This document shows, piece after piece, positions 6,001-30,613 of a stretch of 64,000 nucleotides of DNA (the first letter of the stretch is position 1; every line of letters begins with the position of its first letter). The notes beneath the pieces are model-generated. The model worked only from the letters and a program-made list of their open reading frames with translations, had not been told where the DNA came from and did no database searches. A program made the translations under genes and the position numbers. The stretch is from Escherichia coli (lineage in GTDB: Bacteria > Pseudomonadota > Gammaproteobacteria > Enterobacterales > Enterobacteriaceae), in assembly GCF_024700885.2 (NCBI RefSeq), contig NZ_CP117016.1; one strand, written 5' to 3'.

Positions 6001-7406
6001 TTGAAGCGACGGAGCGAAACAGCGTATTCCAGCTGGCGAGCGTGGGCTTTATTGAGGGATTAAGCGGATACCGCGATTTCCGCCGCCGGGATGAGAAACC
6101 GATGCTCACCCGCTCCGCATGGCAGGAGGTTCTCGTTCAGGCCGGGTTTGCAAACGAGCTGGCGTGGCCCGCGCAGGAATCGTCGCCGCTGCGCCAGCAT
6201 CTGCTGGTAGCGCGTTCGCCTGGCGTAAATCGCCCGGATAAAAAAGCCGTGAGCCGCTATTTACAGCAGCGCTTTGGCACCGGTCTGCCCATTTTACAGA
6301 TCCGGCAAAGAGAAGCGTTATTTACGCCGCTGCATGCCCCGTCTGATGCGCCGACTGAGCCAGCCAAACCCACGCCAGTTGCCGGGGGGAATCCGGCACT
6401 GGAAAAACAGGTGGCTGAACTCTGGCAATCGCTGCTGTCTCGCCCCGTGGCAAGGCATCACGACTTTTTCGAACTGGGCGGCGACAGCCTGATGGCGACA
6501 AGGATGGTCGCGCAGCTAAACCGGAGAGGGATTGCCAGGGCTAACCTTCAGGATCTGTTCAGCCATTCGACGCTGAGCGACTTCTGCGCCCATCTACAGG
6601 CGGCTACGTCAGGAGAGGACAACCCGATACCCCTTTGCCAGGGCGACGGTGAGGAAACCCTGTTTGTCTTCCACGCTTCAGACGGCGATATCAGCGCCTG
6701 GCTGCCGCTCGCTAGCGCGTTGAACAGGCGCGTTTTCGGCCTGCAAGCAAAATCGCCGCAGCGCCTTGCCACGCTCGACCAGATGATCGATGAGTATGTC
6801 GGGTGCATCCGTCGTCAGCAGCCTCACGGCCCTTATGTGCTGGCGGGTTGGTCGTATGGCGCGTTTCTTGCGGCGGGCGCCGCACAACGCCTGTACGCCA
6901 AAGGCGAGCAGGTTCGGATGGTGTTAATCGATCCCGTGTGCCGACAGGATTTCTGTTGCGAAAACCGGGCGGCCCTGCTGCGCCTGTTAGCCGAAGGACA
7001 AACGCCTCTGGCACTGCCCGAACATTTCGACCAGCAGACGCCCGACAGCCAGCTTGCCGACTTTATTAGCCTCGCTAAAACGGCCGGTATGGTGTCGCAA
7101 AACCTGACGCTGCAAGCGGCAGAAACGTGGCTCGACAACATCGCGCATCTGCTGCGTTTACTGACTGAGCATACGCCGGGCGAAAGCGTTCCGGTCCCCT
7201 GTCTCATGGTGTATGCCGCCGGGAGACCCGCGCACTGGACGCCAGCAGAAACCGAGTGGCAGGGCTGGATAAACAACGCCGACGACGCTGTGATTGAAGC
7301 CAGCCACTGGCAAATCATGATGGAAGCCCCCCACGTTCAGGCTTGTGCGCAACACATTACGCGCTGGCTTTGCGCAACCTCAACGCAACCGGAGAACACG
7401 TTATGA
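1..7406 (+). CDS. irp1: Yersiniabactin PKS/NRPS HMWP1, 5'-truncated at window edge (reading frame opens at nt 3; ORF-track Met at 288 is internal)
   Basis: Frame 3 is open from nt 3 to the stop at 7404-7406. Translation shows an acyltransferase motif (GAAHSALLEP), two SAM-methyltransferase motifs (LEVGGGTGG near 1195; LEVGAGTAA near 5695), a KR Rossmann motif (VTGAFGGLGR near 2600), carrier-protein serines (LGMDSLL near 3465; GGDSLMA near 6485), a cyclization-type D-rich motif near 4060 and a thioesterase GWSYG near 6850. Gene order matches the HPI. Confidence 0.9.
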   Translation, partial: LDLAANNGTQHTVFSGPEARLAVFCATLSQHDINYRRLSVTGAAHSALLEPILDRFLDTCAGLHAEPGQIPIISTLTADVIDESTLNQADYWRRHMRQPVRFIQSIQVAHQLGARVFLEMGPDAQLVACGQREYRDNAYWIASARRNKEASDVLNQALLQLYAAGVALPWADLLAGDGQRIAAPCYPFDTERYWKERVSPACEPADAALSAGLEVASRAATALDLPRLEALKQCATRLHAIYVDQLVQRCTGDAIENGVDAMTIMRRGRLLPRYQQLLQRLLNNCVVDGDYRCTDGRYVRARPIEHQQRESLLTELAGYCEGFQAIPDTIARAGDRLYEMMSGAEEPVAIIFPQSASDGVEVLYQEFSFGRYFNQIAAGVLRGIVQTRQPRQPLRILEVGGGTGGTTAWLLPELNGVPALEYHFTDISALFTRRAQQKFADYDFVKYSELDLEKEAQSQGFQAQSYDLIVAANVIHATRHIGRTLDNLRPLLKPGGRLLMREITQPMRLFDFVFGPLVLPLQDLDAREGELFLTTAQWQQQCRHAGFSKVAWLPQDGSPNAGMSEHIILATLPGQAVSAVTFTAPSEPVLGQALTDNGDYLADWSDCAGQPEQFNARWQEAWRLLSQRHGDALPVEPPPVAAPEWLGKVRLSWQNEAFSRGQMRVEARHPAGEWLPLSPAAPLPAPQTHYQWRWTPLNVASIDHPLTFSFSAGTLARSDELAQYDIIHDPHASSRLMIVEESEDTLALAEKVIAALTASAAGLIVVTRRAWRVEENEALSASHHALWALLRVAANEQPERLLAAIDLAENTPWETLHQGLSAVSLSQRWLAARGDTLWLPSLSPNTGCAAELPANVFTGDSRWHLVTGAFGGLGRLAVNWLREKGARRIALLAPRVDESWLRDVEGGQTRVCRCDVGDAGQLATVLDDLAANGGIAGAIHAAGVLADAPLQELDDHQLAAVFAVKAQAASQLLQTLRNHDGRYLILYSSAAATLGAPGQSAHALACGYLDGLAQQFSTLDAPKTLSVAWGAWGESGRAATPEMLATLASRGMGALSDAEGCWHLEQAVMRGAPWRLAMRVFTDKMPPLQQALFNISATEKAATPVIPPADDNAFNGSLSDETAVMAWLKKRIAVQLRLSDPASLHPNQDLLQLGMDSLLFLELSSDIQHYLGVRINAERAWQDLSPHGLTQLICSKPEATPAASQPEVLRHDADERYAPFPLTPIQHAYWLGRTHLIGYGGVACHVLFEWDKRHDEFDLAILEKAWNQLIARHDMLRMVVDADGQQRILATTPEYHIPRDDLRALSPEEQRIALEKRRHELSYRVLPADQWPLFELVVSEIDDCHYRLHMNLDLLQFDVQSFKVMMDDLAQVWRGETLAPLAITFRDYVMAEQARRQTSAWHDAWDYWQEKLPQLPLAPELPVVETPPETPHFTTFKSTIGKTEWQAVKQRWQQQGVTPSAALLTLFAATLERWSRTTTFTLNLTFFNRQPIHPQINQLIGDFTSVTLVDFNFSAPVTLQEQMQQTQQRLWQNMAHSEMNGVEVIRELGRLRGSQRQPLMPVVFTSMLGMTLEGMTIDQAMSHLFGEPCYVFTQTPQVWLDHQVMESDGELMFSWYCMDNVLEPGAAEAMFNDYCAILQAVIAAPESLKTLASGIARHIPRRRWPLNAQADYDLRDIEQATLEYPGIRQARAEITEQGALTLDIVMADDPSPSAAMPDEHELTQLALPLPEQAQLDELEATWRWLEARALQGIAATLNRHGLFTTPEIAHRFSAIVQALSSQASHQRLLRQWLQCLTEREWLIREGESWRCRIPLSEIPEPQEACPQSQWSQALAQYLETCIARHDALFSGQCSPLELLFNEQHRVTDALYRDNPASTCLNRYTAQIAALCSAERILEVGAGTAATTAPVLKATRNTRQSYHFTDVSAQFLNDARARFHDESQVSYALFDINQPLDFTAHPEAGYDLIVAVNVLHDASHVVQTLRRLKLLLKAGGRLLIVEATERNSVFQLASVGFIEGLSGYRDFRRRDEKPMLTRSAWQEVLVQAGFANELAWPAQESSPLRQHLLVARSPGVNRPDKKAVSRYLQQRFGTGLPILQIRQREALFTPLHAPSDAPTEPAKPTPVAGGNPALEKQVAELWQSLLSRPVARHHDFFELGGDSLMATRMVAQLNRRGIARANLQDLFSHSTLSDFCAHLQAATSGEDNPIPLCQGDGEETLFVFHASDGDISAWLPLASALNRRVFGLQAKSPQRLATLDQMIDEYVGCIRRQQPHGPYVLAGWSYGAFLAAGAAQRLYAKGEQVRMVLIDPVCRQDFCCENRAALLRLLAEGQTPLALPEHFDQQTPDSQLADFISLAKTAGMVSQNLTLQAAETWLDNIAHLLRLLTEHTPGESVPVPCLMVYAAGRPAHWTPAETEWQGWINNADDAVIEASHWQIMMEAPHVQACAQHITRWLCATSTQPENTL

Positions 7407-8503
7407 TGCCGTCCGCCTCCCCAAAACAACGCGTACTGATTGTGGGCGCCAAATTTGGCGAAATGTACCTGAATGCCTTTATGCAGCCCCCGGAGGGGCT
7501 GGAACTGGTCGGCCTGCTGGCGCAGGGAAGCGCCCGTTCAAGAGAGCTGGCTCATGCGTTTGGCATTCCGCTGTATACCTCGCCGGAACAGATAACCAGG
7601 ATGCCGGATATCGCCTGTATTGTCGTGCGTTCGACCGTCGCCGGAGGAACCGGTACGCAGCTTGCCAGACACTTTCTGACGCGCGGCGTACACGTCATTC
7701 AGGAGCATCCCCTCCACCCGGATGACATCAGTTCCTTACAAACGCTGGCGCAGGAACAGGGCTGCTGCTATTGGGTAAACACGTTTTATCCGCATACGCG
7801 CGCGGGACGCACATGGCTTCGCGATGCGCAGCAGCTGCGTCGCTGTCTGGCTAAGACGCCGCAGGTGGTCCACGCCACCACCAGCCGACAGTTGCTCTAC
7901 TCCACTCTGGATTTGTTGTTGCTGGCTCTGGGCGTTGATGCCGTCGCCGTGGAGTGCGACGTGGTTGGCAGCTTTAGCGATTTTCACTGTCTGAGACTCT
8001 TCTGGCCGGAGGGAGAAGCCTGCCTGCTGCTTCAGCGCTATCTCGATCCTGACGATCCAGATATGCATAGCCTTATCATGCACCGCCTGCTGCTGGGCTG
8101 GCCGGAAGGTCATCTTTCGCTGGAGGCGAGCTACGGCCCCGTCATCTGGTCATCCAGCCTGTTTGTCGCAGACCATCAGGAGAACGCCCACAGCCTCTAC
8201 CGCAGACCGGAGATCCTGCGCGATCTGCCGGGTCTGACGCGCAGCGCGGCGCCCCTGAGCTGGCGCGACTGCTGCGAAACCGTCGGGCCGGAGGGCGTCA
8301 GCTGGTTGCTACACCAGTTGCGCAGCCATCTGGCGGGCGAACATCCACCAGCGGCCTGCCAAAGCGTACATCAGATCGCGTTATCACGTTTATGGCAGCA
8401 GATTTTACGTAAGACCGGCAATGCGGAGATCAGACGCCTGACGCCGCCGCACCACGACCGGTTAGCCGGTTTCTACAACGATGATGATAAGGAGGCGCTG
8501 TGA
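7403..8503 (+). CDS. ybtU: Thiazolinyl imide reductase (yersiniabactin biosynthesis)
   Basis: 366-aa product starting MMPSASPKQRVLIVGAKFG; the ATG overlaps the irp1 stop (ATGA) and its own stop overlaps the ybtT GTG start. Position between irp1 and ybtT is conserved. Confidence 0.85.
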   Translation: MMPSASPKQRVLIVGAKFGEMYLNAFMQPPEGLELVGLLAQGSARSRELAHAFGIPLYTSPEQITRMPDIACIVVRSTVAGGTGTQLARHFLTRGVHVIQEHPLHPDDISSLQTLAQEQGCCYWVNTFYPHTRAGRTWLRDAQQLRRCLAKTPQVVHATTSRQLLYSTLDLLLLALGVDAVAVECDVVGSFSDFHCLRLFWPEGEACLLLQRYLDPDDPDMHSLIMHRLLLGWPEGHLSLEASYGPVIWSSSLFVADHQENAHSLYRRPEILRDLPGLTRSAAPLSWRDCCETVGPEGVSWLLHQLRSHLAGEHPPAACQSVHQIALSRLWQQILRKTGNAEIRRLTPPHHDRLAGFYNDDDKEAL

Positions 8504-9303
8504 CGCAATCTGCAATGTGCATACCGCTGTGGCCCGCCCGGAACGGCAATACTGCGCATCTGGTCATGTGCCCTTTCGCTGGCGGCAGCAGTAGCGCGTT
8601 TCGCCACTGGCAAGCTGAGCAACTGGCTGATTGCGCGCTTTCTCTGGTGACCTGGCCGGGGCGCGATCGCCTTCGCCATCTGGAACCGCTCAGAAGCATT
8701 ACACAACTGGCGGCACTGCTGGCGAACGAGCTGGAAGCATCCGTATCGCCTGACACGCCGCTTTTACTCGCCGGGCACAGCATGGGGGCGCAGGTGGCGT
8801 TTGAAACCTGCCGACTTCTGGAGCAACGGGGGCTTGCGCCACAAGGACTGATTATTTCCGGGTGCCATGCCCCGCATCTGCATTCTGAACGCCAGCTCAG
8901 CCATCGCGATGATGCCGACTTTATCGCTGAGCTGATAGACATTGGCGGATGTTCTCCTGAACTGCGGGAAAACCAGGAATTAATGTCGCTGTTTCTTCCT
9001 CTTCTGCGCGCTGATTTTTACGCCACCGAGAGCTATCACTACGACTCGCCCGACGTCTGTCCGCCGCTGCGCACGCCTGCGCTGTTATTGTGCGGCAGCC
9101 ACGATCGCGAAGCCTCCTGGCAGCAGGTCGATGCCTGGCGTCAGTGGCTGAGCCACGTTACAGGCCCGGTGGTGATTGACGGCGATCATTTCTATCCCAT
9201 TCAACAAGCCCGGTCCTTTTTTACGCAGATTGTCCGCCATTTTCCCCACGCATTTTCTGCAATGACCGCGTTGCAAAAACAGCCCAGTACTTCAGAAAGG
9301 TGA
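8500..9303 (+). CDS. ybtT: Type II thioesterase (yersiniabactin editing)
   Basis: 267 aa with an alpha/beta-hydrolase GHSMG motif; GTG start overlaps the ybtU stop. Confidence 0.85.
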   Translation: MTQSAMCIPLWPARNGNTAHLVMCPFAGGSSSAFRHWQAEQLADCALSLVTWPGRDRLRHLEPLRSITQLAALLANELEASVSPDTPLLLAGHSMGAQVAFETCRLLEQRGLAPQGLIISGCHAPHLHSERQLSHRDDADFIAELIDIGGCSPELRENQELMSLFLPLLRADFYATESYHYDSPDVCPPLRTPALLLCGSHDREASWQQVDAWRQWLSHVTGPVVIDGDHFYPIQQARSFFTQIVRHFPHAFSAMTALQKQPSTSER

Positions 9304-9306
9304 CGC

Positions 9307-10884
9307 ATGAATTCTTCCTTTGAATCTCTGATTGAACAGTATCCCTTACCCATTGCCGAACAGTTGCACCACTGGGCGGCCCGTTATGCCTCGCGAATTG
9401 CCGTCGTTGATGCAAAGGGGTCGTTAACCTACAGCGCGCTTGATGCACAAGTTGACGAACTTGCCGCAGGTCTGTCATCACTGGGTTTGCGTTCGGGGGA
9501 GCATGTAATTGTGCAGCTTCCCAACGACAATGCGTTTGTTACCCTGCTGTTCGCCTTGTTAAGACTGGGCGTTATCCCCGTGCTGGCGATGCCCTCGCAA
9601 CGGGCGCTGGATATCGACGCGCTGATTGAGCTGGCGCAACCCGTCGCTTACGTTATTCACGGGGAAAACCACGCAGAGCTGGCCCGACAGATGGCGCACA
9701 AACACGCCTGCTTGCGTCATGTTCTGGTCGCTGGAGAGACCGTGAGCGACGATTTTACGCCGCTCTTCTCCCTTCACGGTGAGCGACAGGCATGGCCGCA
9801 GCCTGATGTTTCCGCCACCGCGTTGTTGTTGCTCTCAGGCGGCACAACCGGCACGCCCAAACTCATCCCGCGCCGACATGCCGACTATAGCTATAACTTC
9901 AGCGCTTCTGCTGAACTGTGCGGCATCAGCCAACAGAGCGTGTATCTCGCCGTCCTCCCGGTGGCGCATAACTTTCCGCTGGCCTGCCCCGGTATTCTGG
10001 GAACGCTTGCCTGCGGCGGAAAAGTGGTGCTGACCGACAGCGCCAGCTGTGATGAGGTGATGCCTTTAATCGCGCAGGAAAGAGTGACTCACGTCGCCCT
10101 GGTTCCGGCGCTGGCGCAATTATGGGTGCAGGCCAGGGAGTGGGAAGACAGCGACCTTTCGTCGCTGCGCGTCATTCAGGCAGGCGGCGCCCGGCTCGAC
10201 CCGACGCTTGCTGAGCAGGTTATCGCCACCTTTGACTGTACCCTGCAACAGGTTTTCGGTATGGCGGAAGGCCTGCTCTGTTTTACCCGGCTGGACGATC
10301 CGCATGCCACCATTCTCCACAGCCAGGGGCGCCCGTTGTCCCCTCTGGATGAAATCCGCATCGTTGATCAAGACGAGAACGACGTCGCGCCGGGCGAAAC
10401 CGGGCAATTGTTAACGCGCGGCCCTTATACCATTTCGGGCTATTACCGCGCCCCTGCCCACAACGCGCAGGCCTTTACCGCGCAAGGGTTTTACCGCACA
10501 GGCGACAATGTCAGGCTGGATGAGGTGGGGAACCTGCACGTTGAGGGACGCATAAAAGAGCAGATCAACCGCGCCGGAGAAAAAATAGCCGCGGCTGAAG
10601 TGGAATCGGCACTGCTGCGTTTAGCGGAAGTGCAAGATTGCGCGGTGGTCGCCGCGCCGGACACGCTGCTTGGCGAGCGGATTTGCGCGTTTATCATCGC
10701 GCAGCAGGTGCCAACTGACTATCAGCAGTTGCGTCAACAACTGACCCGTATGGGGCTCAGCGCGTGGAAAATTCCTGACCAAATCGAGTTTCTGGACCAC
10801 TGGCCGCTCACCGCCGTCGGCAAGATAGACAAAAAACGCCTGACGGCTCTCGCCGTCGACCGTTATCGCCATTCTGCCCAATAA
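9307..10884 (+). CDS. ybtE: Salicyl-AMP ligase (adenylation enzyme)
   Basis: 525 aa with adenylate-forming enzyme motifs (SGGTTGTPK, GYYRAP, GDN, EGRIKEQINRAGEK). Confidence 0.9.
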   Translation: MNSSFESLIEQYPLPIAEQLHHWAARYASRIAVVDAKGSLTYSALDAQVDELAAGLSSLGLRSGEHVIVQLPNDNAFVTLLFALLRLGVIPVLAMPSQRALDIDALIELAQPVAYVIHGENHAELARQMAHKHACLRHVLVAGETVSDDFTPLFSLHGERQAWPQPDVSATALLLLSGGTTGTPKLIPRRHADYSYNFSASAELCGISQQSVYLAVLPVAHNFPLACPGILGTLACGGKVVLTDSASCDEVMPLIAQERVTHVALVPALAQLWVQAREWEDSDLSSLRVIQAGGARLDPTLAEQVIATFDCTLQQVFGMAEGLLCFTRLDDPHATILHSQGRPLSPLDEIRIVDQDENDVAPGETGQLLTRGPYTISGYYRAPAHNAQAFTAQGFYRTGDNVRLDEVGNLHVEGRIKEQINRAGEKIAAAEVESALLRLAEVQDCAVVAAPDTLLGERICAFIIAQQVPTDYQQLRQQLTRMGLSAWKIPDQIEFLDHWPLTAVGKIDKKRLTALAVDRYRHSAQ

Positions 10885-10893
10885 GCGCAAACC

Positions 10894-10960
10894 GACCCGA
10901 AACAGGTTGAAATAAACCCGTTTCGGGTAGCACTACTATTAGAAATAGTTATCATTTTCA
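10894..10960 (+). promoter_or_regulatory. fyuA upstream control region: inverted repeat (cccgaaac/gtttcggg, 10896-10927) and an AT-rich Fur-box-like sequence (agaaatagttatcattttc, 10941-10959)
   Basis: Read directly in the 130-bp ybtE–fyuA intergenic region; fyuA/psn is known to be Fur- and YbtA-regulated. Confidence 0.35.
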
Positions 10961-11014
10961 ATTCACCATTGTCGGTATTTTTGGCGTTTCGCCGTCTTAC
11001 AGGGACTCACAACA

Positions 11015-13036
11015 ATGAAAATGACACGGCTTTATCCTCTGGCCTTGGGGGGATTATTGCTCCCCGCCATTGCTAATGCCCAGACTTCACAGCAAGACGA
11101 AAGCACGCTGGTGGTTACCGCCAGTAAACAATCTTCCCGCTCGGCATCAGCCAACAACGTCTCGTCTACTGTTGTCAGCGCGCCGGAATTAAGCGACGCC
11201 GGCGTCACCGCCAGCGACAAACTCCCCAGAGTCTTGCCCGGGCTCAATATTGAAAATAGCGGCAACATGCTTTTTTCGACGATCTCGCTACGCGGCGTCT
11301 CTTCAGCGCAGGACTTCTATAACCCCGCCGTCACCCTGTATGTCGATGGCGTCCCTCAGCTTTCCACCAACACCATCCAGGCGCTTACCGATGTGCAAAG
11401 CGTGGAGTTGCTGCGAGGCCCACAGGGAACGTTATATGGCAAAAGCGCTCAGGGCGGGATCATCAACATCGTCACCCAGCAGCCGGACAGCACGCCGCGC
11501 GGCTATATTGAAGGCGGCGTCAGTAGCCGCGACAGTTATCGAAGTAAGTTCAACCTGAGCGGCCCCATTCAGGATGGCCTGCTGTACGGCAGCGTCACCC
11601 TGTTACGCCAGGTTGATGACGGCGACATGATTAACCCCGCGACGGGAAGCGATGACTTAGGCGGCACCCGCGCCAGCATAGGGAATGTGAAACTGCGTCT
11701 GGCGCCGGACGATCAGCCCTGGGAAATGGGCTTTGCCGCCTCACGCGAATGTACCCGCGCCACCCAGGACGCCTATGTGGGATGGAATGATATTAAGGGC
11801 CGTAAGCTGTCGATCAGCGATGGTTCACCAGACCCGTACATGCGGCGCTGCACTGACAGCCAGACCCTGAGTGGGAAATACACCACCGATGACTGGGTTT
11901 TCAACCTGATCAGCGCCTGGCAGCAGCAGCATTATTCGCGCACCTTCCCTTCCGGTTCGTTAATCGTCAATATGCCTCAGCGCTGGAATCAGGATGTGCA
12001 GGAGCTGCGCGCCGCAACCCTGGGCGATGCGCGTACCGTTGATATGGTGTTTGGGCTGTACCGGCAGAACACCCGCGAGAAGTTAAATTCAGCCTACGAC
12101 ATGCCGACAATGCCTTATTTAAGCAGTACCGGCTATACCACCGCTGAAACGCTGGCCGCATACAGTGACCTGACCTGGCATTTAACCGATCGTTTTGATA
12201 TCGGCGGCGGCGTGCGCTTCTCGCATGATAAATCCAGTACACAATATCACGGCAGCATGCTCGGCAACCCGTTTGGCGACCAGGGTAAGAGCAATGACGA
12301 TCAGGTGCTCGGGCAGCTATCCGCAGGCTATATGCTGACCGATGACTGGAGAGTGTATACCCGTGTAGCCCAGGGATATAAACCTTCCGGGTACAACATC
12401 GTGCCTACTGCGGGTCTTGATGCCAAACCGTTCGTCGCCGAGAAATCCATCAACTATGAACTTGGCACCCGCTACGAAACCGCTGACGTCACGCTGCAAG
12501 CCGCGACGTTTTATACCCACACCAAAGACATGCAGCTTTACTCTGGCCCGGTCGGGATGCAGACATTAAGCAATGCGGGTAAAGCCGACGCCACCGGCGT
12601 TGAGCTTGAAGCGAAGTGGCGGTTTGCGCCAGGCTGGTCATGGGATATCAATGGCAACGTGATCCGTTCCGAATTCACCAATGACAGTGAGTTGTATCAC
12701 GGTAACCGGGTGCCGTTCGTACCACGTTATGGCGCGGGAAGCAGCGTGAACGGCGTGATTGATACGCGCTATGGCGCACTGATGCCCCGACTGGCGGTTA
12801 ATCTGGTCGGGCCGCATTATTTCGATGGCGACAACCAGTTGCGGCAAGGCACCTATGCCACCCTGGACAGCAGCCTGGGCTGGCAGGCGACTGAACGGAT
12901 GAACATTTCCGTCTATGTCGATAACCTGTTCGACCGTCGTTACCGTACCTATGGCTACATGAACGGCAGCAGCGCCGTCGCGCAGGTCAATATGGGTCGC
13001 ACCGTCGGTATCAATACGCGAATTGATTTCTTCTGA
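11015..13036 (+). CDS. fyuA: TonB-dependent outer-membrane receptor for ferric yersiniabactin / pesticin
   Basis: 673 aa with signal peptide, TonB-box region, and a C-terminal aromatic residue ending the beta-barrel (…RIDFF). Confidence 0.9.
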   Translation: MKMTRLYPLALGGLLLPAIANAQTSQQDESTLVVTASKQSSRSASANNVSSTVVSAPELSDAGVTASDKLPRVLPGLNIENSGNMLFSTISLRGVSSAQDFYNPAVTLYVDGVPQLSTNTIQALTDVQSVELLRGPQGTLYGKSAQGGIINIVTQQPDSTPRGYIEGGVSSRDSYRSKFNLSGPIQDGLLYGSVTLLRQVDDGDMINPATGSDDLGGTRASIGNVKLRLAPDDQPWEMGFAASRECTRATQDAYVGWNDIKGRKLSISDGSPDPYMRRCTDSQTLSGKYTTDDWVFNLISAWQQQHYSRTFPSGSLIVNMPQRWNQDVQELRAATLGDARTVDMVFGLYRQNTREKLNSAYDMPTMPYLSSTGYTTAETLAAYSDLTWHLTDRFDIGGGVRFSHDKSSTQYHGSMLGNPFGDQGKSNDDQVLGQLSAGYMLTDDWRVYTRVAQGYKPSGYNIVPTAGLDAKPFVAEKSINYELGTRYETADVTLQAATFYTHTKDMQLYSGPVGMQTLSNAGKADATGVELEAKWRFAPGWSWDINGNVIRSEFTNDSELYHGNRVPFVPRYGAGSSVNGVIDTRYGALMPRLAVNLVGPHYFDGDNQLRQGTYATLDSSLGWQATERMNISVYVDNLFDRRYRTYGYMNGSSAVAQVNMGRTVGINTRIDFF

Positions 13037-13042
13037 TTATTG

Positions 13043-13075
13043 TAAAAGGGATACCGAAAAGGTATCCCTTTTACA
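13043..13075 (+). terminator. Rho-independent terminator after fyuA
   Basis: Perfect hairpin aaaagggatacc-gaaa-ggtatccctttt immediately 3' of the fyuA stop. Confidence 0.6.
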
Positions 13076-13551
13076 CCACTAGTTAAAACCAGTAACTCAG
13101 CAGAGTCGCAAAAAATATTAATCCATAGTGATTATTTAAACAATGAAATTGCGATTAGGATAAATAGATTTAACTTTCTCGTTCCTTTCTCTCCTTATAC
13201 TAAAGAAATAATCATATCAAAATAAAAATTCACAACAGTGCAACATTAAAAAATACAACCAACAAACAATCCTATATACAAGGCACATCTCCAGAATATA
13301 AAAGCACAGACAAACAACCTAAAAAAAACAACCCCATACATATAAATTATTTTATAGGTAAAATAGATTATATATTCTCATAGCTACCACAAACTATACT
13401 AGCCTGAACTATATTTATTCTGCTGCAATCAATGCATACATAACACAAATATCACTCAGGTACACTACTCAAACCACGCTGGGATTTTTCCTCAAGTTAT
13501 AATCATCACCCCGAAAATCATTCGGCATTTACTCATTAAATAGTCACCCCA
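13076..13551. other. AT-rich non-coding spacer at the HPI right end
   Basis: About 470 bp of strongly AT-biased sequence with no ORF of 60 codons or more, in sharp contrast to the GC-rich ybt genes. Confidence 0.5.
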
Positions 13552-13606
13552 GGTGATGCTGCCAACTTACTGATTTAGTGTATGATGGTGTTTTTGAGGT
13601 GCTCCA

Positions 13607-13882
13607 GTGGCTTCTGTTTCTATCAGCTGTCCCTCCTGTTCAGCTACTGACGGGGTGGTGCGTAACGGCAAAAGCACCGCCGGACATCAGCGCTATCTCT
13701 GCTCTCACTGCCGTAAAACATGGCAACTGCAGTTCACTTACACCGCTTCTCAACCCGGTACGCACCAGAAAATCATTGATATGGCCATGAATGGCGTTGG
13801 ATGCCGGGCAACTGCCCGCATTATGGGCGTTGGCCTCAACACGATTTTACGTCACTTAAAAAACTCAGGCCGCAGTCGGTAA
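13607..13882 (+). CDS. insA: IS1 InsA
   Basis: 91 aa starting [24 protein letters not shown] (zinc finger plus HTH). Confidence 0.9.
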
Positions 13883-14304
13883 CCTCGCGCATACAGCCGG
13901 GCAGTGACGTCATCGTCTGCGCGGAAATGGACGAACAGTGGGGCTATGTCGGGGCTAAATCGCGCCAGCGCTGGCTGTTTTACGCGTATGACAGGCTCCG
14001 GAAGACGGTTGTTGCGCACGTATTCGGTGAACGCACTATGGCGACGCTGGGGCGTCTTATGAGCCTGCTGTCACCCTTTGACGTGGTGATATGGATGACG
14101 GATGGCTGGCCGCTGTATGAATCCCGCCTGAAGGGAAAGCTGCACGTAATCAGCAAGCGATATACGCAGCGAATTGAGCGGCATAACCTGAATCTGAGGC
14201 AGCACCTGGCACGGCTGGGACGGAAGTCGCTGTCGTTCTCAAAATCGGTGGAGCTGCATGACAAAGTCATCGGGCATTATCTGAACATAAAACACTATCA
14301 ATAA
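13801..14304 (+). CDS. insB: IS1 InsB (expressed as an InsAB' fusion by -1 frameshift)
   Basis: 167-aa ORF overlapping the insA 3' end in the -1 frame. Confidence 0.85.
13856..13864 (+). promoter_or_regulatory. IS1 programmed -1 ribosomal frameshift motif (A6C)
   Basis: ttaaaaaac lies in the insA/insB overlap. Confidence 0.6.
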
Positions 14305-14319
14305 GTTGGAGTCATTACC

Positions 14320-14645
14320 CCGTATTGCAGTGTTATATTCTTCGCTAAATCTTTTATTTCTTTTAATGTTGCGTGATCCTGCATAGTCATTGTGACTAAT
14401 GTTAATTTAGTCTGTTCAAGTTTGAGCGCATTAAAGACTTCTAAATTAATTGTCGACGTAACAATTAATAGATGCTTAATTTTATGCAATTCAAGCGCCC
14501 GAATAACAGGAAAGATGGCCATAGCATCGCCAATCTGATCGGGAATATGTATGACAACAAAGTCTGTTTTTTCAATATTAAAATTATAAGCTTTATAATC
14601 GTAGTAACTAAATGCAATACGTCTCAACAATGATACTAAAAACAT
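14320..14645 (-). pseudogene. yeeL: Glycosyltransferase family 9 (heptosyltransferase-like) gene fragment, 3'-truncated by IS1
   Basis: Minus-strand ORF (MFLVSLLRRIAF…IHIPDQIGDAMAIFPVIRALE…) runs into the IS1 right end; position upstream of shiA matches yeeL in K-12. Symbol recalled from memory, not verified. Confidence 0.5.
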
Positions 14646-14959
14646 AACTAACCTCGCCTCCCTACTGGTTATAATGCAATGCAGTCTATCAGAATCATCA
14701 GGGTGCAATTTTGTGCATATGCGGACTTTTATGTTTCATATCTCGAACCTGTGGGCCATCTGCTTAATCCTTAAACAACACCAGCAACTCCTGCGCTTTC
14801 ATCTTCCATCGAATTTTTCATGTTGCCGCTAATCAGCCATAAAATCATTTGCAGATGCGCTCTGTCGAGGTAGTCTCATAAGGTTCGTTTATAGATCGAC
14901 GGCAATGTGAGTTACCTTTTCCATACTAATTATAAAAAGACAGTACAAACAGGATCATT

Positions 14960-16276
14960 ATGGACTCCACGCTCATCTCCACTCGTCCCGATGAAGGGAC
15001 GCTTTCGTTAAGTCGCGCCCGACGAGCTGCGTTAGGCAGTTTCGCTGGTGCCGTCGTCGACTGGTATGATTTTTTACTCTATGGCATTACCGCCGCACTG
15101 GTGTTTAATCGCGAGTTTTTCCCGCAAGTAAGCCCGGCGATGGGAACGCTCGCCGCATTTGCCACCTTTGGTGTCGGCTTCCTTTTCCGACCGCTCGGCG
15201 GTGTCATTTTCGGTCACTTTGGTGACCGACTGGGACGTAAGCGCATGTTAATGCTGACCGTCTGGATGATGGGCATCGCGACAGCCTTGATTGGTATTCT
15301 TCCTTCATTCTCGACCATTGGGTGGTGGGCACCTATTTTGCTGGTGACACTGCGTGCCATTCAGGGATTTGCCGTCGGCGGCGAATGGGGAGGCGCAGCG
15401 TTGCTTTCCGTTGAAAGTGCGCCGAAAAATAAAAAAGCCTTTTACAGTAGCGGTGTACAAGTTGGCTACGGAGTAGGTTTACTGCTTTCAACCGGACTGG
15501 TTTCATTGATCAGTATGATGACGACTGACGTACAGTTTTTAAGCTGGGGCTGGCGCATTCCTTTCCTGTTTAGCATCGTACTGGTACTGGGAGCATTGTG
15601 GGTGCGCAATGGCATGGAGGAGTCCGCGGAATTTGAACAACAGCAACATAATCAAGCGGCCGCGAAAAAACGCATCCCGGTTATCGAAGCTCTGTTACGA
15701 CATCCCGGTGCTTTCCTGAAGATTATTGCGCTACGACTGTGCGAGTTGCTGACGATGTACATCGTTACCGCCTTTGCACTTAATTATTCAACCCAGAATA
15801 TGGGGTTACCGCGCGAACTTTTCCTTAATATTGGTTTGCTGGTAGGTGGATTAAGCTGCCTGACAATTCCCTGTTTTGCCTGGCTTGCCGATCGTTTTGG
15901 TCGCCGCAGGTTTTATATCACAGGTGCGTTAATCGGAATGTTGAGCGCATTTCCTTTCTTTATGGCGCTTGAAGCACAATCTATTTTCTGGATAGTTTTC
16001 TTCTCCATAATGCTGGCAAACATTGCGCATGACATGGTGGTGTGTGTGCAACAACCGATGTTTACCGAAATGTTTGGTGCCAGTTATCGCTATAGTGGCG
16101 CTGGAGTCGGTTATCAGGTTGCCAGTGTGGTTGGTGGTGGATTTACACCTTTTATTGCCGCTGCACTCATCACTTACTTTGCCGGGAACTGGCATAGCGT
16201 CGCCATTTATTTGCTGGCTGGATGCCTGATTTCCGCAATAACCGCTTTGTTGATGAAAGACAATCAACGCGCTTGA
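14960..16276 (+). CDS. shiA: Shikimate transporter (MFS)
   Basis: 438 aa, multi-pass membrane protein with MFS motifs (GHFGDRLGRKRM); conserved position upstream of amn. Confidence 0.85.
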   Translation: MDSTLISTRPDEGTLSLSRARRAALGSFAGAVVDWYDFLLYGITAALVFNREFFPQVSPAMGTLAAFATFGVGFLFRPLGGVIFGHFGDRLGRKRMLMLTVWMMGIATALIGILPSFSTIGWWAPILLVTLRAIQGFAVGGEWGGAALLSVESAPKNKKAFYSSGVQVGYGVGLLLSTGLVSLISMMTTDVQFLSWGWRIPFLFSIVLVLGALWVRNGMEESAEFEQQQHNQAAAKKRIPVIEALLRHPGAFLKIIALRLCELLTMYIVTAFALNYSTQNMGLPRELFLNIGLLVGGLSCLTIPCFAWLADRFGRRRFYITGALIGMLSAFPFFMALEAQSIFWIVFFSIMLANIAHDMVVCVQQPMFTEMFGASYRYSGAGVGYQVASVVGGGFTPFIAAALITYFAGNWHSVAIYLLAGCLISAITALLMKDNQRA

Positions 16277-16377
16277 TAGCCTGGCGAAGATCATCCGATC
16301 TTCGCCTTACACTTTTGTTTCACATTCCTGTGACATACTATCGGATGTGCGGTAATTGTATGGAACAGGAGACACAC

Positions 16378-17832
16378 ATGAATAATAAGGGCTCCGGTCT
16401 GACCCCAGCTCAGGCACTGGATAAACTCGACGCGCTGTATGAGCAATCTGTAGTTGCTTTACGCAACGCCATTGGCAACTATATTACAAGTGGCGAATTA
16501 CCTGATGAAAACGCCCGCAAACAAGGTCTTTTTGTCTATCCATCACTGACCGTAACTTGGGATGGTAGCACAACCAATCCCCCTAAAACGCGCGCATTTG
16601 GTCGTTTTACTCACGCAGGCAGCTACACCACCACGATTACTCGCCCTACTCTCTTTCGTTCGTATCTCAATGAACAACTTACGTTGCTGTATCAGGATTA
16701 TGGTGCGCATATCTCGGTGCAACCCTCGCAGCATGAAATCCCTTATCCTTATGTCATTGATGGCTCTGAATTGACACTTGATCGCTCAATGAGCGCTGGG
16801 TTAACTCGCTATTTCCCGACAACAGAACTGGCGCAAATTGGCGATGAAACTGCAGACGGCATTTATCATCCAACTGAATTCTCCCCGCTATCGCATTTTG
16901 ATGCGCGCCGCGTCGATTTTTCCCTCGCGCGGTTGCGCCATTATACCGGTACGCCAGTTGAACATTTTCAGCCGTTCGTCTTGTTTACCAACTACACACG
17001 TTATGTGGATGAATTCGTTCGTTGGGGATGCAGCCAGATCCTCGATCCTGATAGTCCCTACATTGCCCTTTCTTGTGCTGGCGGGAACTGGATCACCGCC
17101 GAAACCGAAGCGCCAGAAGAAGCCATTTCCGACCTTGCATGGAAAAAACACCAGATGCCCGCGTGGCATTTAATTACCGCCGATGGTCAGGGTATTACTC
17201 TGGTGAATATTGGCGTGGGACCGTCAAATGCTAAAACCATCTGCGATCATCTGGCAGTACTACGCCCGGATGTCTGGTTGATGATTGGTCACTGTGGTGG
17301 CTTACGTGAAAGCCAGGCCATTGGCGATTATGTACTTGCACATGCTTATTTACGCGATGATCACGTTCTTGATGCGGTTCTGCCGCCCGATATTCCTATT
17401 CCAAGCATTGCTGAAGTGCAACGTGCGCTTTATGACGCTACCAAGTTAGTCAGCGGCAGGCCCGGTGAGGAAGTCAAACAGCGGCTGCGTACAGGTACTG
17501 TGGTAACCACAGATGACAGGAACTGGGAATTACGTTACTCAGCTTCTGCACTTCGTTTTAACTTAAGCCGGGCCGTGGCAATTGATATGGAAAGTGCAAC
17601 CATTGCCGCGCAAGGATATCGTTTCCGCGTGCCATACGGGACACTACTGTGTGTTTCAGATAAACCGTTGCATGGCGAGATTAAACTTCCCGGCCAGGCT
17701 AACCGTTTTTATGAAGGCGCTATTTCCGAACACCTGCAAATTGGCATTCGGGCGATCGATTTGCTGCGCGCAGAAGGCGACCGACTGCATTCACGTAAAT
17801 TACGAACCTTTAATGAGCCGCCGTTCCGATAA
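16378..17832 (+). CDS. amn: AMP nucleosidase
   Basis: 484 aa from the internal ATG (MNNKGSGLTPAQ…); the ORF-track N-terminal extension from 16222 overlaps the shiA 3' end and is discounted. Confidence 0.9.
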   Translation: MNNKGSGLTPAQALDKLDALYEQSVVALRNAIGNYITSGELPDENARKQGLFVYPSLTVTWDGSTTNPPKTRAFGRFTHAGSYTTTITRPTLFRSYLNEQLTLLYQDYGAHISVQPSQHEIPYPYVIDGSELTLDRSMSAGLTRYFPTTELAQIGDETADGIYHPTEFSPLSHFDARRVDFSLARLRHYTGTPVEHFQPFVLFTNYTRYVDEFVRWGCSQILDPDSPYIALSCAGGNWITAETEAPEEAISDLAWKKHQMPAWHLITADGQGITLVNIGVGPSNAKTICDHLAVLRPDVWLMIGHCGGLRESQAIGDYVLAHAYLRDDHVLDAVLPPDIPIPSIAEVQRALYDATKLVSGRPGEEVKQRLRTGTVVTTDDRNWELRYSASALRFNLSRAVAIDMESATIAAQGYRFRVPYGTLLCVSDKPLHGEIKLPGQANRFYEGAISEHLQIGIRAIDLLRAEGDRLHSRKLRTFNEPPFR

Positions 17833-18174
17833 TAAGTTATGAACCTTCTTATCAGAAATAGATGTGAAGGATTAAGTAAGACATCTGGCAAATAGCCTGC
17901 AATAAACGCGGGCTGTTTGCTTCCTTGGGCAGATGCGAGTTTTATTATCGTCTTAATGATTTCCACATATTAAAAGCAAGTATGCTTTCAAAACACAATT
18001 ATAAAAAATCCCGCCAACAACATTAGTTTTTATAAAATTAAATATAAGATTATGGCTTTAGAATATTTTTATTTCTAATAGACGAGATTTTTCCTGTTAT
18101 GATATAATATGCTGAATTAACACATGTTAACGATTTACCAGTAATGTAAATAAATTTTCGAGGAGATCATTCCA

Positions 18175-18891
18175 GTGGGACGTAAATGGGCCAATATTGT
18201 TGCTAAAAAAACGGCTAAAGACGGTGCAACGTCTAAAATTTATGCAAAATTCGGTGTAGAAATCTATGCTGCTGCCAAACAAGGTGAACCCGATCCAGAA
18301 TTAAACACATCTTTAAAATTCGTTATTGAACGTGCAAAGCAGGCACAAGTTCCAAAGCACGTTATTGATAAAGCAATTGATAAAGCCAAAGGCGGTGGAG
18401 ATGAAACGTTCGTACAGGGACGTTATGAAGGCTTTGGTCCTAATGGCTCAATGATTATTGCTGAGACATTGACTTCAAATGTTAACCGTACGATTGCTAA
18501 CGTTCGCACAATTTTCAATAAAAAAGGCGGCAATATCGGAGCGGCAGGTTCTGTCAGCTATATGTTTGACAATACGGGTGTGATTGTATTTAAAGGAACA
18601 GACCCTGACCATATTTTTGAAATTTTGCTTGAAGCTGAAGTTGATGTTCGTGATGTAACTGAAGAAGAAGGTAATATTGTTATTTATACTGAACCTACTG
18701 ACCTTCATAAAGGAATCGCGGCGCTAAAAGCAGCTGGAATCACTGAGTTCTCAACAACAGAATTAGAAATGATTGCTCAATCTGAAGTTGAGCTTTCCCC
18801 AGAAGATTTAGAAATCTTTGAAGGGCTTGTTGATGCCCTTGAAGATGACGACGATGTACAAAAAGTTTATCATAACGTCGCAAATCTCTAA
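18175..18891 (+). CDS. yeeN: YebC/PmpR-family transcriptional regulator
   Basis: 238 aa; GAGGAG RBS 9 nt upstream of a GTG start. Confidence 0.85.
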
Positions 18892-18900
18892 TTATATGTT

Positions 18901-18931
18901 AAAGAAATCTGTCTTTATGGCAGATTTCTTT
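18901..18931 (+). terminator. Hairpin terminator after yeeN
   Basis: aaagaaatctg…cagatttcttt inverted repeat directly after the stop. Confidence 0.45.
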
Positions 18932-19345
18932 AATCTCATATAATCCTTATAAAAATATAATGTTTAACTCGTCATATTGCTTATAAAAAATCCCCGTTCC
19001 CAGAGAAATAATATTTATTAAAATGGCAGGTCTTCTTTTTCTGATTACCGAAGACAAAGTGGCAATTACGTATAGTTTCCCGATAAAGACGCGACAGCTA
19101 CATCCCGCATAAGGCATTTTTCTCTTTATCTTTGTACGGTACTTCATGGAACAGAATTTTTGACCTTGTGAATCGTGATGTCTGTTGGGGAGGAGCAATT
19201 TGCTCACTGAAGCGTGAGACTCGATTAAGCGCACGAAACACAGAAATCAAAAAACCCGGCCACTTTTTTACAAACTGACCGGGTAAAAATAATTTTTATT
19301 TTTTAACTGCCTTGAGACTCATAGAGATGTCTCAAAACTAAAATT

Positions 19346-19421
19346 TGGCTCCTCTGACTGGACTCGAACCAGTGACATACGGATTAACAGTCCGCCGTTC
19401 TACCAACTGAACTACAGAGGA
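19346..19421 (-). tRNA. asnW: tRNA-Asn
   Basis: 76-nt reverse complement of the tRNA-Asn sequence ending CCA; differs from the two plus-strand copies at one D-arm position. Confidence 0.9.
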
Positions 19422-19521
19422 ATCGTGAGAACGAGGCGAATATTAGCGATGCCCACCCACAATGTCAAAGCCTGTTTTTTAAATTTGAAATCGTTTGCTG
19501 AAATAATCTGCATTTTGTTGT

Positions 19522-21009
19522 TTATTCCGACACAACTGGCTTTTTTTCACACTTTTGCGGTTCGGGTCGAGGGTATTTCCATAGCCAACGTCCAGTAACC
19601 ATTCGCCAGTAAAACAGCACGGCCCGCACAGCCCAGTCGGCAAACATTCCCATCCAGACACCAACCACACCCCAGCCAAGCATGATGCCCAGCACATAAC
19701 CGACGACAACCCGGCAACCCCACATGCTCAACATAGAAACCCACATAGCGTAACGGGCGTCACGAGCCCCCTTAAATCCAGCGGGTAGCACCCATGAGGC
19801 GGACCAAATAGGCATAAATAAAGCATTTAGCCAAATCAGAATCACAACGACATGTTTAACCTGTGGATCCTGGGTGTAAAACGATGCCATAACCCCGGCA
19901 AAGGGAGCCGTTAGCCAGGCGATGGCCGTTAATCCAAGAGTGGACAGCCAGAAGACATGCCGCAACTGAATCTCTGCTTGCGCTATCTGCCCTACCCCTA
20001 ACCTTCGGCCTGTAATGATCGTAGAAGCAGAGCCGAGCGCACTTCCGGGTAAGTTGATAAGAGCCGCAATTGAAAACGCGATAAAATTTCCGGCAATAAC
20101 ACTGGTCCCCATCCCGGCAACGAACATTTGGGTTAATAACCGACCACTGGTAAATAACACTGATTCGACACTCGCTGGAATACCAATCCCCATGACTTCC
20201 CAGATAATGCTAAAATTCAGCGGTTTAAAATAGCTCTTTAACGAAATCCTTAGCGCAGGATTAAAACCAATCGCCAGCACCCACAAAATTGCAACTGCGC
20301 CAATATAACGAGAAATGGTTAAACCCAACCCAGCCCCGACAAATCCCAGTCCCGGCCAGGAGAAAAGGCCGTAAATCAATATGCCGCTAATAATAATATT
20401 AAGAATATTCAGGCTACCGTTAATCAGTAGCGGTATTTTCGTATTCCCTGCACCACGAAGTGCCCCGCTACCAATCAAAGTGATGGCAGCTGCTGGATAA
20501 CTGAGTACCGTCAGCTCCAGATAAGTCAACGCCAGTGCTTTAACTTCTGTCGTGGCATCACCCGCGACGAAATCAATAATTTGCTCGCCAAAATGATGAA
20601 TAAGCGTTGCCAACAGTACGGCAAACAACGTCATGATCACCAATGACTGCCGCGTCGCCACCCTCGCTCGTCGTCGATCCCGCTTACCGAGACTAAATGC
20701 CACAACGACAGTAGTACCAAGATCGATAGCAGCAAAAAAAGCCATAATGACCATATTGAAGCTGTCCGCCAATCCCACGCCGGCCATCGCATCTTTTCCC
20801 AGCCAGCTGACCAGAAAAGTGCTCAGAACCCCCATCAACAGGACACAGGCATTCTCCATGAAGATAGGAACAGCAAGCGGGGTTATCTCGCGCCAGAACA
20901 ACACTTTGTAGCTCTTGCGTTTAGCGTGCCAGCGAGTGCCGTGAACAACCTGGCGTAAAGCAGAGGAGATATTCAAAGCCGACCTTAATTGCAGAAAGTG
21001 AAACCACAT
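19522..21009 (-). CDS. yeeO: MATE-family efflux transporter
   Basis: 495 aa from the MWFHFLQLRS start; multi-pass membrane protein. The upstream 51-codon extension in the ORF track is discounted. Confidence 0.8.
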   Translation of the reverse strand: MWFHFLQLRSALNISSALRQVVHGTRWHAKRKSYKVLFWREITPLAVPIFMENACVLLMGVLSTFLVSWLGKDAMAGVGLADSFNMVIMAFFAAIDLGTTVVVAFSLGKRDRRRARVATRQSLVIMTLFAVLLATLIHHFGEQIIDFVAGDATTEVKALALTYLELTVLSYPAAAITLIGSGALRGAGNTKIPLLINGSLNILNIIISGILIYGLFSWPGLGFVGAGLGLTISRYIGAVAILWVLAIGFNPALRISLKSYFKPLNFSIIWEVMGIGIPASVESVLFTSGRLLTQMFVAGMGTSVIAGNFIAFSIAALINLPGSALGSASTIITGRRLGVGQIAQAEIQLRHVFWLSTLGLTAIAWLTAPFAGVMASFYTQDPQVKHVVVILIWLNALFMPIWSASWVLPAGFKGARDARYAMWVSMLSMWGCRVVVGYVLGIMLGWGVVGVWMGMFADWAVRAVLFYWRMVTGRWLWKYPRPEPQKCEKKPVVSE

Positions 21010-21169
21010 TTCAAATAATGAGGGAGAATCAGCAAAGCTGCAAAGATTTTCGCCAACAAATTGTCTGCAAATGCAACAAACTGTTGATAGAAACGGCAAA
21101 CAGTTGGGGAATTTAAAAATCGGGTTTGACAAAAGATTTTTCGCCGTTAAGATGTGCCTCAACAGCGAT

Positions 21170-21245
21170 TCCTCTGTAGTTCAGTCGGTAGAACGGCGGA
21201 CTGTTAATCCGTATGTCACTGGTTCGAGTCCAGTCAGAGGAGCCA
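21170..21245 (+). tRNA. asnU: tRNA-Asn
   Basis: TCCTCTGTAGTTCAGTCGGTAGAACGGCGGACTGTTAATCCGTATGTCACTGGTTCGAGTCCAGTCAGAGGAGCCA. Confidence 0.95.
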
Positions 21246-21254
21246 AATTTCTGA

Positions 21255-21284
21255 AAAGCCCGCTTTTATAGCGGGCTTTTTGCT
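21255..21284 (+). terminator. Rho-independent terminator after asnU (bidirectional with cbl)
   Basis: aaagcccgc-ttttata-gcgggcttttt. Confidence 0.6.
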
Positions 21285-22233: not shown

Positions 22234-22334
22234 GGTAAACTCCGGGCAGTTCAGATTTTCCGTTATTGTTAAAGTCTAATGCCCGGCATAACAAATAATA
22301 AAAACCCGCATCTTATTCCATCCCGATATAACGC

Positions 22335-23252: not shown

Positions 23253-23307
23253 GTTGCCTCCGGTTTTTGAGAATCGGCCCAAGTGCCGCCATTACTTACA
23301 ACCAGAC

Positions 23308-23324
23308 TGCAAGATGCTTGCCAG
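23308..23324 (-). promoter_or_regulatory. Sigma-54 (-24/-12) promoter of nac
   Basis: Minus strand reads TGGCAA-gcatc-TTGCA with canonical GG/GC spacing, about 55 nt upstream of the nac start. Confidence 0.5.
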
Positions 23325-23577
23325 TTTTATTTTGGCGTTGATGTACAAGCTAACCAACTGTCAAATAAGAGATTATGATAGATTCGTCATTGGCTCTTTT
23401 CACCAGCAGTCGCGTTCCCCTGCCCTATAAAAGGAGGGTATGCACCACGATGGTTCATTACCAATAAGATTGAAATCTCATCACTTTGTTGAAATTGACA
23501 GCAAACAAACAAAAAAATGCATTTCACCCTTTGACATCACCATGCACTGCCATTAATATGCGCCCCGTTCACACGAT

Positions 23578-23653
23578 TCCTCTGTAGTTCAGTCGGTAGA
23601 ACGGCGGACTGTTAATCCGTATGTCACTGGTTCGAGTCCAGTCAGAGGAGCCA
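23578..23653 (+). tRNA. asnV: tRNA-Asn
   Basis: Identical 76-nt tRNA-Asn sequence. Confidence 0.95.
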
Positions 23654-23658
23654 AATTC

Positions 23659-23688
23659 AAAAAAGCCTGCTTTCTAGCAGGCTTTTTG
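23659..23688 (+). terminator. Rho-independent terminator after asnV
   Basis: aaaaagcctgc-tttcta-gcaggcttttt. Confidence 0.6.
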
Positions 23689-23708
23689 CTTTCTAATTAC
23701 CAACGCTC

Positions 23709-24641: not shown

Positions 24642-24705
24642 CATGTCCCTTTCCTATGTCGCGAAAGCTATCCGTTAAGTATAGCTTTTATCAGACTTTT
24701 CGTTT

Positions 24706-25785: not shown

Positions 25786-25796
25786 GTCACGTCTCT

Positions 25797-30606: not shown

Positions 30607-30613
30607 AACCATT

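Follow-up and report, generated by a model that had tools for sequence, protein, structure and literature searches.

Described islands and IS1-promoted deletions

The high-pathogenicity island (HPI) of E. coli features a unique deletion of its fyuA-side border and ends in a canonical truncated junction (Schubert et al. 2009, PMC2606025). At this canonical border, as present in strains 19M19 and EC931, the tail of the HPI runs directly into yeeJ, approximately 218 nt inside the K-12 gene. The HPI/yeeJ junction is uninterrupted in 2,239 of the 5,426 complete E. coli genomes that form the collection compared here. Between fyuA and yeeJ of EC931 and 19M19, no copy of the 17-bp asn-tRNA repeat is found at up to four mismatches. 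As judged by these genome comparisons, the canonical E. coli border is itself a deletion, and the IS1 event described below is secondary to it. The locus under study is the fyuA-side border of an HPI in a stretch of 64,000 nucleotides of E. coli DNA, which was analysed as a whole and is referred to as the window. It shares with the published canonical island the same ybt–fyuA core, the same first 515 bp of the tail, and the lack of a 17-bp repeat on the fyuA side. Unlike in the canonical island, the border in the window is formed by IS1 and a truncated yeeL (yeeL′), the canonical junction having been removed by a second, lineage-specific deletion. With its fyuA side devoid of the 17-bp direct repeat, the island is unable to excise by site-specific recombination.

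The ICE-type HPI is of the ECOR31/ICEEc1 kind and is represented here by strain 3502. Its AT-rich tail after fyuA is 98–99% identical to that of the window. Unlike in the window, this tail leads into a conjugation/mobilisation module (AlpA, TraR, TrbC/VirB2), which is wholly absent from the window. The HPI tail is 98–99% identical to the start of this extra module up to the junction, and the alignment fits a canonical island that is a right-truncated ICE. The ICE-type HPI of strain 3502 also carries an IS1 in its tail, 42 bp further on, as a simple insertion with an 8-bp duplication.

Adjacent deletions promoted by IS1 were reportedly described by Reif and Saedler in 1975 for the gal region. 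An IS-promoted adjacent deletion is classically recognised by one fixed end combined with far endpoints that vary, and IS-mediated deletion with loss of the target duplication is textbook knowledge. The target preference of IS1 is for AT-rich DNA. The locus in the window resembles the classical cases in several respects: the deletion starts at the end of the IS, the IS is kept, the outer junction is fixed with variable far ends, no target duplication is left, and AT-rich DNA surrounds the endpoints. Unlike the cases of classical IS1 genetics, it is natural and chromosomal, and it is reconstructed by comparative genomics.

The pgm locus of Yersinia pestis, which includes the HPI, is lost via recombination of two flanking IS100 copies, with a loss of approximately 102 kb. 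The locus in the window is similar in that an IS adjoining the HPI would drive deletion at the edge of the island. Unlike Y. pestis, it keeps the island genes, and its loss is confined to 3.8 kb at the border and next to it.

Island tail, IS1 and core DNA in the window

Over 12,160 bp (window 7472–19631), the window agrees at 100% identity with the reverse complement of MLI114, an E. coli genome from human stool in Mali (NZ_CP117013.1). Outside of the locus, the window differs from version 2 of MLI114 by homopolymer indels, by approximately 50 substitutions, and by the inversion of a 1.6-kb phage segment; it therefore represents a different assembly version or a sister isolate. The genomic background is phylogroup-D-like, with window flanks near-identical to E. 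coli 042 and EC931. The features on the fyuA side are the following:

11015–13036, + strand: fyuA, yersiniabactin receptor gene and last core gene of the HPI (open reading frame; fyuA annotated in the identical MLI114 sequence)
13041–13075, + strand: perfect hairpin with a 15-bp stem, directly 3′ of the fyuA stop codon (repeat scan)
13037–13551: retained AT-rich HPI tail, 515 bp (GC content and match to HPI-positive genomes)
13543–13551: left flank of IS1, GTCACCCCA, presumably the one copy of the initial 9-bp target duplication that survived, at a junction common to three genomes

The gene order ybtU–ybtT–ybtE–fyuA is annotated in MLI114 and EC931, with irp1 upstream in EC931. The hairpin at 13041–13075 is likely the terminator of fyuA—it is not flagged by a simple terminator scan because its T run is short. 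In a combined promoter and terminator scan, the number of sites was no higher than in shuffled sequence, and therefore no claim of an IS1-made promoter is made. In addition, no match to a known RNA was obtained in 12900–15000 at the gathering thresholds of Rfam. The spacer at 13037–13551 has a GC content of 31% versus 56% for fyuA; its identity to HPI-positive genomes is approximately 100% and ends exactly at position 13551. By composition and match, it is HPI/ICE DNA and not E. coli core DNA. The order given in the first-pass annotation—fyuA, an AT-rich spacer, and then a complete IS1—is thus borne out, with the spacer at 31% GC and IS1 occupying 13552–14319:

13552–14319, + strand: IS1 of the IS1A type, complete, 768 bp (repeats, open reading frames, profile match and MLI114 annotation)
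13552–13574 and 14297–14319: terminal inverted repeats of IS1, IRL and IRR (repeat scan)
13607–13882, + strand: insA, open frame (list of open reading frames)
13801–14304, + strand: insB′ frame, open (list of open reading frames)
13856–13864: A6C slippery motif TTAAAAAAC, the frameshift site (read from the sequence)

The inverted repeats comprise 23 nt each and are 78% complementary. Jointly, insA and insB′ span positions 1–199 of the NCBIfam profile NF033558 (IS1 family transposase) end to end, insB′ scoring 145.6 bits and insA 91.3 bits, the latter slightly below the whole-protein cut-off of 100 bits. The identical sequence of MLI114 is carried in RefSeq as an IS1A transposase with a programmed frameshift. 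As judged by these features, the element is complete and apparently coding-competent. It matches IS1 copies in 5,425 of the 5,426 E. coli genomes, and within the whole window it is the single IS1 copy.

On the far side of IS1, the window continues with the following features:

14320–14328: right flank of IS1, CCGTATTGC, deletion endpoint inside yeeL
14320–14645, − strand: yeeL′ remnant, the 5′ 326 nt, equal to the N-terminal 108 codons (MLI114 annotation and translation)
14646–14959: divergent intergenic region yeeL–shiA, intact
14960–16276, + strand: shiA, intact (open reading frame and MLI114 annotation)
19346–19421, − strand: asnW, tRNA-Asn gene
21170–21245, + strand: asnU, tRNA-Asn gene
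23578–23653, + strand: asnV, tRNA-Asn gene

Intact yeeL has a length of 1,053 nt and encodes a family-9 glycosyltransferase of 350 aa, the C-terminal half of which gives a weak heptosyltransferase-like profile match. The full-length gene is found in EC931 and HSP60; yeeL of K-12 is a pseudogene. In the window, the yeeL′ frame enters the IRR of IS1 for six codons (VMTPTY) and then meets a stop codon, and RefSeq lists it for MLI114 as a pseudogene, ‘glycosyltransferase family 9 protein, missing C-terminus’. The downstream order yeeL–shiA–amn–yeeN–asnW is that of the asnT neighbourhood of K-12; the window begins inside the island, and its int/asnT end falls outside. A search of the window for an attR-like copy of the 17-bp asn-tRNA 3′-end repeat, CCAGTCAGAGGAGCCAA, yielded matches at up to three mismatches only within asnW, asnU and asnV, and these three copies are true tRNA genes, not attR. 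The absence of such a repeat on the fyuA side had already been pointed out in the first-pass annotation and is confirmed. It is, however, not an effect of IS1, since the IS1-free relatives EC931 and 19M19 are already without the repeat; its absence therefore predates IS1 and is not to be attributed to the IS. A placement of IS1 exactly at the border between island and core was considered and rejected, the canonical border being located 490 bp further on.

Loss of 3,833 bp and of the target duplication

The nearest IS1-free relative of the window is EC931, with 3 mismatches in approximately 24.8 kb of flanks. Window 5385–13551 corresponds to EC931 locus 1–8167 with 1 mismatch in 8,167 bp, and window 14320–31000 to EC931 locus 12001–28681 with 2 mismatches in 16,681 bp. 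The segment in between, EC931 locus 8168–12000 (3,833 bp), is replaced by IS1, and homology restarts at the first base beyond each end of the IS. It comprises the final 490 bp of the HPI tail, the canonical HPI/yeeJ junction (EC931 locus 8658/8659), a yeeJ pseudogene remnant, the yeeJ–yeeL spacer, and the 3′ 727 nt of yeeL. The canonical tail/yeeJ junction, which falls within this deleted segment, is accordingly lacking in the window. In most of the HPI-positive genomes among the 5,426 complete ones, the match to the left flank stops at the base preceding IS1; in HPI-negative genomes, the match to the right flank starts with the first base past the element. A displacement of yeeJ or other lost DNA to another site in the window was considered and rejected, as neither yeeJ nor the remaining missing segment has a match anywhere in the window.

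IS1 in the window is not flanked by a target duplication. The left flank GTCACCCCA and the right flank CCGTATTGC agree at 0 of 9 positions, and a repeat scan with a seed of 7 found no direct or offset duplication of 8–9 bp around the element. As a control, simple IS1 insertions in the tail or the yeeL neighbourhood of other genomes were examined, and 7 of 7 carry duplications of 8–9 bp (AREA_494, 3502, AHB12, CUVET19-1426, MIN12, K_EC180, and the second IS1 of B19695). The missing duplication marks the IS1 of the window as a rearranged member of the family, not a non-member.

We put the probability that the locus arose by an IS1-associated deletion at roughly 95%. Several points of the first-pass annotation can be judged on these data. 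It had described the flanks of IS1 as free of a target-site duplication and had named an 8–9-bp direct duplication across the element as the observation that would speak for simple insertion; the flanks and the repeat scan agree with the former and give no sign of the latter. Its proposal that a deletion at IS1 took the right junction of the HPI and fused the island to a truncated yeeL is upheld by the comparison with EC931, in which the 3,833 bp missing here are present. The comparison with HPI-positive genomes that it had suggested leads to the same result, as the DNA to the right of the IS1 position is contiguous in EC931 and missing in the window. It had further presumed that yeeJ was removed. 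This holds insofar as yeeJ is absent from the window, but what was there to be removed was only an already-dead pseudogene remnant—in IS1-free relatives, it is already 5′-truncated, internally deleted, and frameshifted.

Nested deletions anchored on one IS1

The left junction at 13551 is present in 3 of the 5,426 complete genomes, namely MLI114, HSP60, and B19695. Over 3,800 + 2,600 nt of flank, not a single mismatch separates these three from one another or from EC931, and the anchored IS1 lacks a target duplication in all three. They differ in how far the deletion reaches to the right:

HSP60 (urine, Brazil): deletion of 2,971 bp, right junction at 12822 (19M19 coordinate), full-length yeeL kept
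B19695 (Ireland): deletion of 3,706 bp, right junction at 13557 (19M19 coordinate), extra divergent IS1 in yeeL with the 9-bp duplication GCTAAATCT
MLI114 (Mali): deletion of 3,833 bp, right junction at 13684 (19M19 coordinate), yeeL reduced to its first 108 codons

The right junction IS1/CCGTATTGC is found in MLI114 only (1 of 5,426). The three junctions thereby show nested one-sided deletions with a fixed left IS1 junction and a stepwise loss to the right within a small sublineage.

The IS1 copies at this junction are not all alike. The window IS1 is 100% identical to the IS1 of HSP60 at the same left junction, and a mosaic trace of a second, different IS1 was not seen in it. The anchored IS1 of B19695 is of the IS1B type—6 of 7 differences, over positions 262–396, match IS1B—where those of HSP60 and MLI114 are IS1A, which shows that sequence has been exchanged between IS1 copies here. 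The second IS1 of B19695 lies in yeeL in direct orientation, 23 bp from the endpoint of the window. B19695 was considered as the direct precursor of the window and rejected, because a crossover between its IS1 copies would end at 19M19 position 13707 and not at 13684, i.e., 23 bp off.

Further IS1 activity is seen around yeeL. In 37 other genomes, an IS1 is located within a few hundred bp at yeeL, and the gene has been struck by IS1 at at least four other sites in other lineages. Strain G8 features an IS1-bounded inversion of yeeL′–shiA–amn with reciprocal duplication halves. None of the 5,426 complete genomes has IS1 at the 13551 site as a simple insertion with its duplication, as a progenitor would. 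In metagenome contigs, the progenitor right junction (the IS1 end, an 8- or 9-bp duplication, and the tail) had 0 matches. The observed left junction likewise had 0 matches in metagenome contigs, and this absence is weak evidence because short-read assemblies usually break at IS1.

Mechanism of the deletion

The most likely mechanism is a transposase-driven adjacent deletion, for which we see slightly better than even odds. IS1 would at first have inserted into the HPI tail with a 9-bp duplication, probably GTCACCCCA, and later deletions would have taken the right-hand copy of this duplication plus more DNA. A deletion of 2,971 bp like that of HSP60 may have come first, followed by an extension of 862 bp. 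The anchored IS1 would have undergone intramolecular replicative transposition, in the same orientation, into an AT-rich target close by, with the intervening segment excised as a circle and IS1 kept together with its outer junction. Three endpoints emanating from one anchor, an IS1 identical to that of HSP60, and the AT-rich endpoints argue for such a course. The GC content at the endpoints is 31–35% in the tail, and in yeeL it is 38% overall and 32% in the retained fragment; both endpoints are AT-rich and therefore fit the target preference of IS1. Adjacent deletions by IS as a general concept are summarised in PMC11708052, which also covers stepwise growing deletions beside a resident IS150 in the long-term evolution experiment.

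RecA-dependent homologous recombination between the tail IS1 and a second, direct IS1A at the 14320 site, with the interval deleted and a hybrid IS1 left behind, would yield an identical end product, and therefore the window sequence cannot separate the two. We regard this route as plausible without being probable. B19695 exhibits just such a geometry, with the anchored IS1 and a direct IS1 in yeeL bordered by the GCTAAATCT duplication, and the IS1B-like stretch of its anchored copy shows that exchange between IS1 copies occurs; yet its crossover endpoint (13707) is not the observed one (13684). That yeeL is a frequent landing site for IS1, as seen in the 37 other genomes, and that G8 carries an IS1-bounded inversion speak for recombination as well, and PMC11708052 names recombination between IS copies among the frequent reasons why duplications are missing. 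The lack of a simple-insertion progenitor in 5,426 genomes or metagenome contigs also counts against the adjacent deletion. On the other hand, each deletion by recombination takes two events, the three endpoints call for a second insertion on three separate occasions, and the partner must have been an identical IS1A, as the window IS1 does not differ from that of HSP60. In addition, in none of the genomes of the collection do both halves of yeeL accompany an IS1 at the 14320 site.

The same lack of a simple-insertion progenitor among the complete genomes and metagenome contigs would also follow if an incoming IS1 had inserted and deleted 3.8 kb in a single step, with never any duplication or stepwise growth, and movements of IS5 and IS481 with deletion and without duplications have been proposed (PMC11708052). 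This scenario, however, is improbable and would require IS1 to have struck one nucleotide three times independently, each time in the same orientation; given the common left junction, the identical flanks, and the three right ends, a shared ancestor with one anchored IS1 is by far the more economical account. Least credible of all is that no DNA was lost, be it that IS1 simply inserted or that the assembly collapsed at a repeated IS1. IS copies are generally where assemblies fail, and homopolymer indels elsewhere do separate the window from version 2 of MLI114. Against an artefact stand the complete MLI114 assembly, the 100% identity of the locus with RefSeq MLI114 over 12,160 bp, and the occurrence of the same left junction in HSP60 (Brazil) and B19695 (Ireland), both sequenced independently. 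Simple insertion without loss is effectively refuted by the flanks being 3,833 bp apart in EC931 and by the absent duplication, and yeeJ and the missing segment are not in the window. Beyond the adjacent deletion favoured here, the tail–yeeJ–yeeL interval could be a recurrent IS1 hotspot from which the anchored IS1 is still removing DNA in one phylogroup-D-like sublineage, given three different endpoints in the isolates from Mali, Brazil, and Ireland, and the loss of YeeL or of the chimeric open reading frame might be selected and not neutral; on the present genome comparisons, we consider this unlikely.

Consequences for the island and its neighbourhood

As judged by gene content, yeeL is inactivated by the deletion and is the only previously intact gene destroyed. 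Also lost, on comparison with the IS1-free relatives, are the dead yeeJ remnant and the chimeric open reading frame of the old junction. The ybt–fyuA genes, the yeeL–shiA intergenic region, and shiA are untouched at the sequence level. The island is still locked in the chromosome, excision having been impossible already before the IS1 event. The biological consequence is hence small, and the case is an ordinary strain-level IS-mediated deletion. IS1A, the E. coli HPI, its published truncated border, and IS deletion with loss of the duplication are all known biology; for this particular IS1/yeeL′ junction, no published description was found.

The border of the island in this strain is set by a secondary IS1-anchored deletion and not by the original integration or the ancestral truncation. 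The series of 2,971, 3,706, and 3,833 bp is a clean natural example of a single IS copy eroding its neighbourhood, and the junctions of the three genomes could serve as a lineage marker. For annotation, an absent target duplication is a reliable sign of lost DNA.

Recurrent IS1 insertion in yeeL

The gene yeeL is a repeated target of IS1. The insertion sequence is found at yeeL in 37 other genomes, with the loci L008, L009, and L010 as examples, and the region hit is the DNA that lies immediately to the left of the equivalent of window position 14320. The insertions occupy at least four distinct sites, each of them with an 8–9-bp duplication, and are spread over unrelated lineages, with dog, pig, and human as sources. 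The count of 37 rests on a query that picks up one orientation only, and the real number of IS1 hits in yeeL is, therefore, probably higher.

In E. coli G8 (L007, NZ_CP060057.1), at 4313–9894, the counterpart of window ~14320–17900, a yeeL'–shiA–amn segment lies inverted between two inverted copies of IS1A. Two duplications are represented in the flanks by reciprocal halves, namely CGTAATTT/AAATTACG and GCACTTGCC/GGCAAGTGC. IS1 has here mediated an inversion, in the neighborhood that also holds the IS1 of the window.

The canonical HPI/yeeJ junction

The canonical junction between the yersiniabactin island (HPI) and yeeJ is present in 2,239 genomes. It creates a chimeric ORF—named "inverse autotransporter beta domain-containing protein" in RefSeq—whose first part lies in island (ICE-derived) DNA and whose remainder lies in yeeJ.

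Chimeric HPI/yeeJ ORF (deleted in the window)
8344–9055 in EC931 (L014), the nearest IS1-free relative
10029–10739 in 19M19 (L002), an HPI genome with the canonical junction

E. coli 3502 (L012, NZ_CM168000.1) carries an HPI of the ICE type (region 5993–10202), in which fyuA and an AT-rich tail are followed by genes for AlpA, DUF2857, TraR/DksA, a lytic transglycosylase, and TrbC/VirB2. Its homology to the canonical E. coli HPI tail stops exactly at the canonical junction.

Further variation along the window

In JE86-ST05 (L015), the yeeO–asnU–cbl–nac block between asnW and asnV (17027–21334; window 19346–23653) is inverted relative to the window, which shares its orientation with EC931 and K-12. 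This inversion presumably arose by recombination between inverted tRNA-Asn genes. JE86-ST05 also has an integrase-led island with an IS1B adjoining asnV.

Past cobUST, the window features a degraded mosaic of IS and gene remnants.

Mosaic within window ~27000–51000 (MLI114 annotation)
IS remnants: IS4, IS3, ISL3, IS110
gene fragments: phosphotriesterase-related, gamma-glutamyltransferase

A CP4-44-like element follows within the same range, in which, according to the same annotation, agn43 is frameshifted and cbtA truncated, with the adjoining cbeA intact.

The window is not byte-identical to the RefSeq genome of MLI114 (NZ_CP117013.1): a C7/C8 homopolymer indel at ~40364, a few other indels, and ~50 substitutions are scattered through 14015–64000, and the IS1 locus shows no difference. 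The window probably stems from a different version of the assembly or from a sister isolate. In the tail-fiber region of a P2-like prophage, a 1.6-kb segment (window 53211–54818) adjoining a "recombinase family protein" gene is oriented opposite to version 2 of RefSeq MLI114 and looks like a Gin/Cin-type invertible tail-fiber switch in its alternative state.
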